From positions 26,486 through 90,485 of the forward strand of contig CAWHWX010000007.1 in assembly GCA_963833125.1 (NCBI GenBank): DNA of 64,000 nt. The letters run 5' to 3'. Every line of letters starts with the position of its first letter. Positions within the stretch are counted from its first letter, which is position 1. Positions 53,245 through 55,460 of the stretch are shown here, piece after piece. The position numbers were made by a program, and so were the translations under genes. The notes beneath the pieces were generated by a model that searched no databases, was not told where the DNA came from, and worked only from the letters and a program-made list of their open reading frames with translations. The DNA comes from Candidatus Bathyarchaeota archaeon (GTDB lineage Archaea > Thermoproteota > Bathyarchaeia > 40CM-2-53-6).

Positions 53245-55460
53245 GTGCCACGTTACAAGTCCACAACGGAAATACAGAAGATCATAGCGAACAAGGAACA
53301 GATCCGAAAGACGTAGACTAGTCCGCGTCCGGAACATATGGGCATCATCGCCCACGTCGACCACGGTAAGACGACGATGAGCGATTCCCTCCTTGCCGCT
53401 GCCGGGCTTCTGTCGCCAGGGATGGCTGGTACAGCGCTAGCCCTCGATTACATGGAGGAGGAGCAGAAGCGACAGATGACCATCAAAGCCGCCAACGTAA
53501 GCCTTCTTCACGAGCGTAATGGCACGCCCTACGTCATCAACCTGATCGACACGCCCGGCCACGTGGACTTCTCAGGCCGAGTAACACGCTCCCTCAGAGC
53601 CACGGATGGAGCCGTGGTTGTAGTTGACTCCGTTGAGGAGATTATGGTTCAAACCGAGACGGTTACCAGGCAGGCACTTGAAGAACGGGTTCGGCCCTGT
53701 GCTCTACATAAACAAAATCGACCGTCTCATCAAAGAGTTGAGATTAACCCCCGACCAAATACAGGAGAGGATCGGGAGGATTATCACAGAATTCAACCGA
53801 CTCGTCGAACTCTACGCGGAACCCGAGTACCGGGAAAAGTGGAAAGTTAGTTTCGCAAGCAATACAGTTGCAATGGGATCCGCAAAGGACAAGTGGGGAT
53901 TCAATGCGGAGATCGCCAAAGAGTCGAACGTAAGGTTCTCCGACGTGGTCGACGCCTACCTGAACGACAAGATAACGGAACTGACCACAAAAGCGCCTTT
54001 GCATGATGCCGTTCTGAACATGGCGGTTGAAGCCATGCCTCCCCCACACGTTGCGCAAAGATATCGCGTTCCGAGGGTTTGGAAGGGGAACATTGACAGT
54101 GAGGTCGGCAAGGCTATGCTCAACTGCGATGACAACGGCCCAGTAGTTATGGCCATAACGAACATCGTCGTCGACCCACAGGCTGGAATTGTGGCGAGCG
54201 GTAGATTATTTTCGGGTACGATTACGGAGGGGTCAACATTCCACCTTCTTGGCGCCCCGCGTGGACCAGAGAGTTCAACAGGTGTGTATTTTCATGGGAC
54301 CCTACCGAGAAATCGTGGGGACCATAAGCGCGGGCAACATTCCAGCCCTTCTAGGGCTTGAATCAGCTAAGGCCGGTGAGACACTTTCAACCATCAAAGA
54401 CATTGCACCCTTCGAAGCGGTTCACTACGTCACCGAACCAGTCGTTACGATGGCGGTAGAGCCGAAATTTAGCCGAGATCTGCCGAAGCTCGTTGAAGTT
54501 CTAAGGAGACTGAGCCTCGAGGACCCGAACTTAGTTACCAAGATCAACGAGGAGACCGGGGAATACCTCATTGCAGGAATGGGGACTCTCCACCTGGAGA
54601 TTGCAAACACCCTGATCACCAAGACGGGGCTGGAGATTGTAACCTCCAAACCCATCGTAATCTACCGCGAGAGCATAAGAGGCCCCGCTGGACCGGTTGA
54701 AGGCAAATCGCCGAACAAGCACAACAAAATCTACCTCAGCGTCGAACCCCTACCCGACAAGATTGTGAATATGATAAAGGAGGGGAAGATCGGCGAATAC
54801 CAAGACAAGCACGAGATGGCAAAGATTCTGCGCGAAGAAGGATGGCCCCCCGACGAGGCACGTGGGGTTTGGAGCGTGGATGAGGGAAGCAACATGCTGG
54901 TAGAGGTAACGAAGGGAGCGCAATATGTTCAGGAAGTGAAAGACATGGTCATAGCAGGGTACCGATGGGGCTTGAAAGAAGGGCCCCTCGCCTATGAACA
55001 GATCCGGGGAATCAAAGTGAAGATCACGGACGTATCCCTGCACGAAGACCCAGTCCACAGAGGACCCGCCCAAATTATGCCCATGAGCCGACGAGCATTC
55101 TTCGTAGCATTCCTCAACGACAACCCCGTCCTCCTAGAACCAATTCAGAGGATCACCGTGAAGGTTCCACCCGAACTCTTAGGAGCCGCAACAAGCGTGA
55201 TCTCGCAGAAGCGAGGCAAGATCGTATCCGTAGACCAACGAGGACACTTAGTTTACGTGGTCGGCGAACTGCCCACAGCGGAAAGCTTCGACCTATCCGA
55301 GGTTATGCGAGGCGCCTCCCAAGGAAGAGCGTTCTGGGGACTGGAATTCGCACATTGGGCCCCCGTCCCACAATCCTTGGTCAACACAGTTATCTCTGAC
55401 ATACGAAAACGCAAAGGACTGTCACCCGAACCACAGAAAGTAGAAGACTTCATGGAATAG
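53245..55460 (+). CDS. fusA: Elongation factor 2, with a 27-nt BHB intron and two apparent 1-nt insertions near 53697 and 54257
   Basis: GTG-PRYKST...[39 protein letters not shown] and diphthamide loop HEDPVHRG. Confidence 0.96.
53309..53335 (+). other. Bulge-helix-bulge intron in EF-2 mRNA
   Basis: Central helix UCCG(53303-06)/CGGA(53330-33), 3-nt bulges AAA(53307-09) and ACA(53334-36), inner helix GACG/CGUC; contains an in-frame TAG; removal gives CGA AAT ATG (R-N-M). Confidence 0.88.

Follow-up and report, generated by a model that had tools for sequence, protein, structure and literature searches.

The intron in the pre-mRNA of cbf5 from Crenarchaeota, reportedly described by Watanabe in 2002, is the closest known counterpart of the element considered here, a 27-nt insert in the gene for elongation factor 2 (EF-2) of a Candidatus Bathyarchaeota archaeon. 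The insert was found in a 64,000-nt stretch of contig CAWHWX010000007.1 (assembly GCA_963833125.1), hereafter called the window, where it occupies positions 53309-53335 of the forward strand. We consider it very likely that this insert is a genuine spliced intron of the bulge-helix-bulge (BHB) type and that it interrupts the only EF-2 coding sequence of the organism. After cbf5, EF-2 is a second archaeal protein-coding gene with a tRNA-type intron, and a known mechanism thereby gains a new host gene. According to the accessible parts of Schwarz 2020 (PMC7714728), cbf5 has been cited for over twenty years as the only archaeal coding sequence with such an intron, and is the only case reported besides an intron in a 5' untranslated region (5' UTR) in Haloferax. 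A full-text literature search, with subscription journals mostly outside it, returned no report of a BHB intron in EF-2, in agreement with the initial annotation of the window, which knew of none.

The cbf5 intron, as far as the available text on it goes (PMC2738675), resembles that of EF-2 in being short and of BHB type, in lying within a coding sequence and in splitting the codon of a functionally critical residue. By the same partial account, the two are also alike in their relaxed motif, in a hetero-oligomeric tRNA splicing endonuclease (EndA), in a patchy distribution that points to gain and loss and in lengths that are often not multiples of three. They differ in host gene, a pseudouridine synthase in one case and a highly expressed, essential GTPase in the other, and in site, which is Asn-22 in EF-2. 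Archaeal tRNA and rRNA introns share with the EF-2 intron the 3-4-3 geometry, the presumed enzymes, compensatory helix changes and similar sizes (11-175 nt for tRNA introns in the accessible part of PMC2738675). In contrast to these, the EF-2 intron is not embedded in a tRNA or rRNA body, its exon strand is constrained by coding, and its product is an mRNA in which the precision of splicing shows as reading frame. Haloferax volcanii HVO_1309 has a BHB intron in the 5' UTR of its mRNA, which is likewise processed at BHB sites by the splicing endonuclease, and removal of this intron appears, from the portion of the source available (PMC7714728), to matter for expression; it is situated in the untranslated leader and interrupts no codon, whereas the EF-2 intron lies in coding sequence and contains an in-frame stop. 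Inteins of the P-loop occupy the same short region of EF-2, but they are translated, need an open frame and are excised from the protein, whereas the 27-nt element has a stop and is excised from the RNA.

In eukaryotes, the HAC1 and XBP1 mRNAs are spliced in the cytoplasm, with IRE1 making the cuts and a tRNA ligase or RtcB joining the exons. These systems resemble the EF-2 case in that a short intron at stem-loops is removed by proteins only, independently of the spliceosome and with a ligase of tRNA splicing, and in that full-length protein is not obtained from the unspliced form. They differ from it in their nuclease, IRE1, and in acting as a regulated stress switch; the EF-2 intron is known from sequence and RNA contigs. 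A role of RtcB in XBP1 splicing is described in the accessible part of PMC8718801.

Only one EF-2 gene is present in the genome (3.07 Mb, 39 contigs). In the window it reads GTG (53245) ... CAG ATC CGA AAG ACG TAG ... CAT ATG (53338) GGC ATC ATC GCC CAC, and the 21 upstream codons share one frame with the sequence from ATG 53338. Compared to an ordinary EF-2 gene there are 27 additional bases, and exon 1 runs into Lys-Thr-stop. The letters of the insert are identical to those of the initial annotation, which had placed an insert with an in-frame TAG between EF-2 codons, and both the window sequence and its translation bear this out. More specifically, two 3-nt bulges (AAA and ACA) lie on opposite strands around a 4-bp UCCG/CGGA helix, the arrangement that defines a BHB motif; the inner stem GACG/CGUC and the outer stem CAGA/UAUG, also proposed at the outset, are present as well, the latter with one G.A mismatch (Table 1).

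The endonuclease cuts such motifs after the second base of each bulge. Removal of 53309-53335 or, equally, of 53310-53336 gives CGA AAT ATG, with Asn codon 22 split as A|AT and located eight codons before the Gly-Lys of the P-loop. The spliced product would be 728 aa long, and intron-less homologues have 728-730 aa. The central helix and the inner stem both form in the minimum-free-energy fold of 53290-53350, as does the 5' bulge; in this single-sequence fold only two pairs of the exon-side helix are formed, not the full helix.

Homologous inserts were found at the same site in relatives. A first survey searched 40 relatives for EF-2 and inspected the DNA of their loci, and in nearly all of these an insert stands at this place, variable within and bordered by conserved ATCCG-AAR and CCGG-ANA-TATNGG; a second covered 105 genomes of the window's order, 80 of which gave a match to the EF-2 N-domain and 77 of which had a determinable intron state. 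An intron at the Asn-22 site is present in 57 of these 77 genomes, and in the window's genus in all 18 genomes with the locus (17 besides the window's own). Together, the loci gathered comprise 64 with intron, and their introns amount to 58 distinct sequences of 25-54 nt. Their lengths leave a remainder of 0, 1 or 2 on division by three in 16, 22 and 20 of the 58, respectively, such that 42 are not multiples of three. The BHB cut rule nonetheless yields [IV]RN[MILF]G..AH[VI]D in frame in 58 of 58, including one sequence (L137) in which the junction is restored and the N-terminal part upstream is disturbed. Genes without the intron (G037/L024, L036, L152-L154 and others) read QIRN[I/L/M/T]GIIAH, which is the predicted junction. 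The initial annotation had held that cutting by the EndA rule restores both the frame and the conserved IRN.G lead-in, and that a 1-nt indel cannot account for the structure. Both statements extend to the relatives, as neither a single indel nor a coding insert nor read-through can restore the frame in all 58.

Among 56 distinct exon 1 sequences of relatives, the start codon (ATG, TTG or GTG) stands at the same place, and the mean pairwise nucleotide difference at codon positions 1, 2 and 3 is 0.205, 0.138 and 0.458; judged by these values, exon 1 varies as translated sequence does, chiefly at third positions. An in-frame stop occurs in every one of the 58 introns and falls at the same third codon in 54 (TAG in 50, TAA in 3); stops overall include TAA and TGA. 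Because the stop holds this position although its pairing partners vary, its near-constancy suggests selection to halt translation of unspliced RNA; the sequences are kin by descent, and the count is no test of this. The codon after the junction is ATT, ATC, ATA, TTC or CTT, hence not a start, in 41 of the 58, and an equivalent of ATG 53338 is found in the other 17. In those 41, no intact P-loop protein can be made from this place without splicing.

A covariance model was built from eight 27-nt introns and recovered 56 of the 58 distinct sequences, on which the following statistics are based. Paired cells amount to 92.2%, compared to 86.2 +/- 0.5 in shuffles (reached by 0 of 500), and cells changed on both sides number 45, compared to 13.1 in shuffles (again 0 of 500 reach 45). 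In a control with the partner slid by 1-3 columns, pairing drops to 20-48%. Since the sequences were aligned by fitting them to the model, these figures are biased towards the structure; counting from anchors in the conserved flanks, with no model fitting, gives concordant results. The central helix is paired in 100% of cells, with U-A to U-G and C-G to U-A changes in more distant lineages that produce the forms UUCG/CGAA and UUCG/CGAG. The inner helix is 97.1% paired with compensatory changes in three of the four modelled pairs, and a helix on the intron side is thus part of the motif. Bulge 1 is AAA in most distinct sequences and otherwise TAA or AAT; bulge 2 nearly always has A as its first and as its third base. 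On the exon side, the A-U pair by the bulge is found in 55 of 60 rows, followed by a mismatch, an A-U pair in 58 of 60 and a C-G pair in only 16-17. The strict hBHBh' definition, as worded in the accessible part of PMC7714728, requires an exon-side helix with at least two Watson-Crick pairs, whereas the two pairs here are non-adjacent; by its aligned sequences, the EF-2 motif is best regarded as a relaxed BHB rather than a strict hBHBh'. Searched against its own genome, the model matched the EF-2 site only, which is expected from a model that includes exon sequence. Alignment of the 5' ends of related genes had been proposed as a check on intron presence and covariation, and both are found, with covariation in the central and inner helices.

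RNA data provide evidence of removal. A search of sequencing runs yielded nine metatranscriptomes with small shares of the EF-2 gene, and four of these from four studies (X1, X2, X6 and X9) were compared with the window at 85% likeness. In soil run X1, a 304-nt contig (record 1) covers window positions 53272-53602 with 15 mismatches and is without the 27 nt at 53309. In peat run X2, from another study, a contig (record 9) covers 53251-53516 with 9 mismatches and is likewise without them; in both runs, all depth at 53309 is without the 27 nt. Identity of the X1 contig is 95.1% with the window and 96.1% with G019, which places it within the genus whose genomes all have the intron; DNA carried over from these genomes would be intron-bearing. 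No contig of X6 or X9 bridges the intron, and the parts of the gene uncovered in any run carry no evidence. The spliced junction that the initial annotation had proposed to look for in transcripts is accordingly seen in two studies as the absence of exactly 27 nt, in contigs of close relatives.

The intron is not confined to the window's order. Among the matches listed in a class-level survey, with 291 further match rows outside them, it occurs outside this order only in family f29 (G163 and G145). A strict pattern search over a phylum sample of 401 genomes matched 13, of which 7 belong to three families of other classes; the reversed control pattern gave no matches in the same sample. Six of these seven genomes were spliced in silico and all show the restored junction. 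The UUCG form of the intron was found in 3 of 321 very complete genomes (completeness >= 99), in three more families. The phylum searches, using strict patterns and genome samples, give lower bounds only, and the intron is carried at the same site by six or more families in the phylum's other classes. Of 70 named archaeal records that show the site, 8 have the intron; within these 70 it was not found in any record named Nitrosopumilus, Nitrososphaera, Nitrosotalea, Nitrosocosmicus, Nitrosotenuis, Nitrosopelagicus or Nitrosopolaris. Among named records, the nearest are metagenome-assembled genomes (MAGs) titled Candidatus Bathyarchaeota or Bathyarchaeia, and a few contigs in bacterial MAGs.

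Within the order, 19 of the 77 genomes are intron-less: 15 of genus g2, two of g3 and one of g14, all of the same family, and G037 of another family. The remaining genome (G026) has no intron at Asn-22 and instead carries a 42-nt BHB intron six codons downstream (L030, G026:C49, about 168-632), between the His and Val codons of AHVD, composed of GCCC, bulge AUA, a 9-bp stem, GGGC and bulge AGG. Judging from its sequence, this short part of EF-2 has a second intron site, independent of that at Asn-22. Intron-bearing relatives otherwise have intact open frames of about 713-760 aa. Taken together, the distribution is that of an old and patchy intron with precise losses.

Several observations weigh against the conclusion that the 27-nt element is a spliced intron. 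The fold energy of 53290-53350 is ordinary (z = -0.31), with 62 of 200 shuffles folding as well; on the window sequence alone the BHB motif is within chance, and what carries the case is the comparison with relatives together with the RNA. Pairing of the exon-side helix is weak, at 75.6% of cells in the 56 sequences. The cut rule itself is here supported only indirectly. In family f29, of an order other than the window's (L156, G163:C1; L157, G145:C39) and with central helix UGCG/CGCG, the rule does restore the frame, yet the codon at the junction is then GCG (Ala) or GAU (Asp) rather than one for Asn. With 95-96% identity to the window, the RNA contigs derive from close relatives and not from the window's own strain; RNA libraries can contain DNA, and an intron-less DNA allele in the samples is formally possible. 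Neither do the contigs give an amount of unspliced RNA, and they cannot separate removal of 53309-53335 from removal of 53310-53336. The roles assigned to EndA and RtcB are putative. Finally, the window's own EF-2 copy has two frame breaks.

Some of these points would fit an insert that is real but stays in the RNA, with EF-2 made from ATG 53338 without its first 22 residues and the RNA contigs derived from intron-less strains or from DNA. An ATG at this place is indeed present in the genus (17 of the 58 distinct sequences) and is used by gene callers, and both the 95-96% identity of the contigs and possible DNA in RNA libraries leave some room for such a source. We nevertheless regard this explanation as very unlikely. 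No start codon stands there in 41 of the 58 sequences, and 48 of 120 database calls are forced to start after the P-loop, from where no GTPase can be obtained. Furthermore, exon 1 is conserved as protein, changing mostly at third codon positions, and contaminating DNA from the genus to which the X1 contig belongs would contain the intron that 18 of 18 of its genomes possess.

The enzymes expected of a spliced BHB intron are encoded in the genome. Two genes match tRNA_int_endo (PF01974) above cut-off, at 84.1 and 52.3 bits, with open reading frames (ORFs) of 185 and 190 aa, and there is one match to RtcB (PF01139) at 574 bits. The catalytic Tyr/His/Lys pattern is presumably confined to the 185-aa EndA-type ORF. 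Two subunit genes suggest a heterotetrameric, presumably (alpha-beta)2, enzyme; in the available part of PMC5829648, the two-subunit EndA is one of two types that accept non-canonical introns. We infer both the action of EndA and RtcB on the EF-2 RNA and the chemistry of the ends.

Removal by another agent, either a self-splicing element or a different nuclease-ligase pair, would be compatible with the weak exon-side helix and with a role of EndA that is deduced here from sequence. This too has a very low probability in our judgement. The conserved and covarying features are those of a BHB motif, the cuts that restore the frame are the BHB cuts, and the two EndA-type genes represent an architecture that accepts non-canonical substrates (PMC5829648, as far as accessible). 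A group I or group II intron was rejected: the insert has 27 nt in the window and 25-54 nt in relatives, far below the hundreds of nucleotides of a ribozyme core, and an Rfam search of 53100-53500 gave no family at E <= 1. A scan with ARAGORN detected no tRNA in the window.

The same genome also has a BHB element in cbf5, outside the window. This 19-nt element (L171, G000:C19:106700-109993, at about 1479-1497 of the locus) consists of CCCU, bulge AGA, stem GAC/GUC, GGGG and bulge CAA, contains an in-frame TAG and splits the catalytic Asp codon of GGTLDP between its first and second base (G|AT). The crenarchaeal cbf5 intron is placed at exactly the same position by Yokobori et al. 2009, in the accessible part of that work (PMC2738675). 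Of the 28 relatives' loci inspected (relatives L173-L199), 26 have this intron too, at lengths of 17-23 nt and showing compensatory changes. Judged by these sequences, the known range of the cbf5 intron is extended to this lineage, in which the only kind of archaeal mRNA intron known so far is demonstrably present. A genome-wide scan for BHB motifs whose removal joins open frames was uninformative: 9846 candidates with 3/3 bulges compared to 9406-9913 decoys, that is, no excess.

Ribosomal recoding of an intact RNA was considered as well, either by stop read-through, for example with TAG as an amino acid, or by bypassing of a hairpin. In the bypass of phage T4 gene 60, a stop follows soon after the take-off point and is followed by a hairpin. 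The stop and hairpin of the EF-2 insert resemble such signals, and in the window the insert is in frame (27 nt). However, recoding is extremely improbable. The length is not divisible by three in 42 of the 58 inserts, TAA and TGA occur among their stops, MGIIAH would be out of frame after a landing on the matching Arg codon CGG at 53330-53332, and the 27 nt are physically missing from the RNA contigs. An assembly or sequencing artefact or a decaying pseudogene, for which the two 1-nt frame breaks in C-runs of EF-2 and the apparently frame-shifted neighbouring flap-endonuclease-like (FEN-1) gene might speak, has a negligible chance of being correct, given an insert with structured variation at the same site in 64 loci of independent assemblies, a single-copy EF-2 and otherwise intact frames in intron-bearing relatives.

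For the spliced BHB intron we propose the following course of events. The pre-mRNA would fold locally, with UCCG of the exon (53303-53306) pairing with CGGA of the intron (53330-53333) between two 3-base bulges and with a hairpin on the intron side. The two-gene EndA would cut after the second bulge bases, at 53308|53309 and 53335|53336, and RtcB would ligate the exons. The resulting mRNA, CAG ATC CGA A|AT ATG GGC, would encode an EF-2 of 728 aa in which the usual IRNxG lead-in precedes the P-loop; on unspliced RNA, translation begun at GTG 53245 would terminate at the TAG (53314-53316) after 23 residues.

The EF-2 intron is most likely an old, nearly neutral and at times lost element, whose in-frame stop limits the damage from unspliced RNA. 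By analogy, it might instead act as a gate that makes EF-2 synthesis, and hence elongation capacity, dependent on EndA and RtcB, with the third-codon stop as a fail-safe; we think this rather doubtful. If it were true, it would be an archaeal counterpart of unconventional splicing of the HAC1/XBP1 type, and the cbf5 intron, the second site in G026 and the spread over several classes would mark a wider, uncatalogued set of BHB introns in protein-coding genes of these uncultured lineages. The question opened is whether translation capacity is coupled to tRNA processing. Irrespective of this, the host is an essential, highly expressed gene that is widely used as a phylogenetic marker, and it carries the intron order-wide and in several classes. 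Among uncultured archaea of soil and peat, protein-only mRNA splicing by the tRNA machinery would have a wider occurrence than cultured models had led one to expect. The precise losses, the second site six codons away and the coexistence with inteins described below also provide material for studying intron evolution.

Table 1. Positions of the EF-2 intron, its structural parts and other features of the gene, in window coordinates unless loci are given.
Feature	Position	Strand	Remarks
EF-2 exon 1	53245..53308	+	GTG start, 21 codons and base 1 of Asn codon 22
Outer (exon-side) helix, 5' strand CAGA	53299..53302	+	pairs with UAUG 53337-53340, one G.A mismatch
Central 4-bp helix, 5' strand UCCG (exon 1)	53303..53306	+	pairs with 53330-53333
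5' three-base bulge AAA	53307..53309	+	putative cut 53308|53309, from frame restoration and RNA contigs
BHB intron (very likely), 27 nt	53309..53335	+	missing from RNA contigs X1 and X2; homologous introns at the same site
Inner (intron-side) hairpin	53310..53329	+	GACGU 53310-53314 with GCGUC 53325-53329; GA/UC, 53316-53317 with 53322-53323
In-frame TAG	53314..53316	+	third codon after Arg-21; unspliced RNA would end after 23 residues
Central helix, 3' strand CGGA (intron)	53330..53333	+	pairs with UCCG 53303-53306
3' three-base bulge ACA	53334..53336	+	putative cut 53335|53336; third base becomes base 2 of the Asn codon
EF-2 exon 2	53336..55460	+	last two Asn-22 bases to stop codon, reading through two 1-nt insertions
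EF-2 frame break 1	53695..53698	+	one extra base in or beside a CCC run; alignment to four intact relatives
EF-2 frame break 2	54255..54255	+	one extra base in a CCCC run; alignment to four intact relatives
P-loop intein in relatives	loci L143-L151, L145, L031, L158		genomes G024, G054, G084, G055, G053, G043, G060, G023, G046, G001

The intron also leaves its mark on public databases. Among the 120 best database homologues of a relative's EF-2 (P0002-P0121), only 17 have the full N-terminus. The other 103 are mis-called at this end: 48 start at the internal Met of MGIIAH, 48 at MSDSLL after the P-loop and seven in intron-derived or other odd sequence. The initial annotation had anticipated that annotators would miss the intron by starting the gene at the internal ATG, and this is what 48 of the 120 entries do, with another 48 starting later still. 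This amounts to a systematic annotation error, and gene callers and marker-gene pipelines would need BHB-aware models. A number of archaeal EF-2 entries stand under bacterial names (Methylomirabilota, Saccharimonadales, Acidiferrales and [Eubacterium] cellulosolvens), which points to mis-binned contigs.

An intein of about 550 aa, a length estimated from open frames, interrupts the EF-2 P-loop of ten relatives (AHVDHGK | C...HN | TTM; Table 1). The intein alleles of genera g2 and g3 with the N-terminal part in view are intron-less; in G023 this part lies off the contig. The BHB intron and the P-loop intein occur together in G084 and G001 (the window's own genus), and the idea of the intron as a shield against homing of the P-loop intein was rejected on this basis. 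An intein was also rejected as an identity for the 27-nt element itself, given the in-frame stop and the 42 of 58 lengths that are not multiples of three. In ammonia-oxidising Thaumarchaeota, the accessible part of PMC6563490 reports the EF-2 gene as the commonest casposon integration target, so that in this region of the archaeal tree EF-2 attracts inserted elements of several unrelated kinds.

Both frame breaks of the window's EF-2 gene, overlooked in the initial annotation, are +1. RNA contigs of runs X6 and X9 have 1 nt fewer than the window at 53694/53695; no RNA contig among the runs compared bridges the break at 54255. Most likely the two breaks are assembly errors unrelated to the 27-nt element. 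The neighbouring flap-endonuclease-like gene (52011-53112, reverse strand) is seemingly split into ORFs 52084-53112 and 52011-52127, and together with the frame breaks in EF-2 this suggests homopolymer indel errors in the assembly. Adjoining it, upstream of and divergent from EF-2, lies an intact 530-aa ORF (50418-52010, reverse strand), which we take from the ORF listing to resemble an ATP-dependent DNA ligase.

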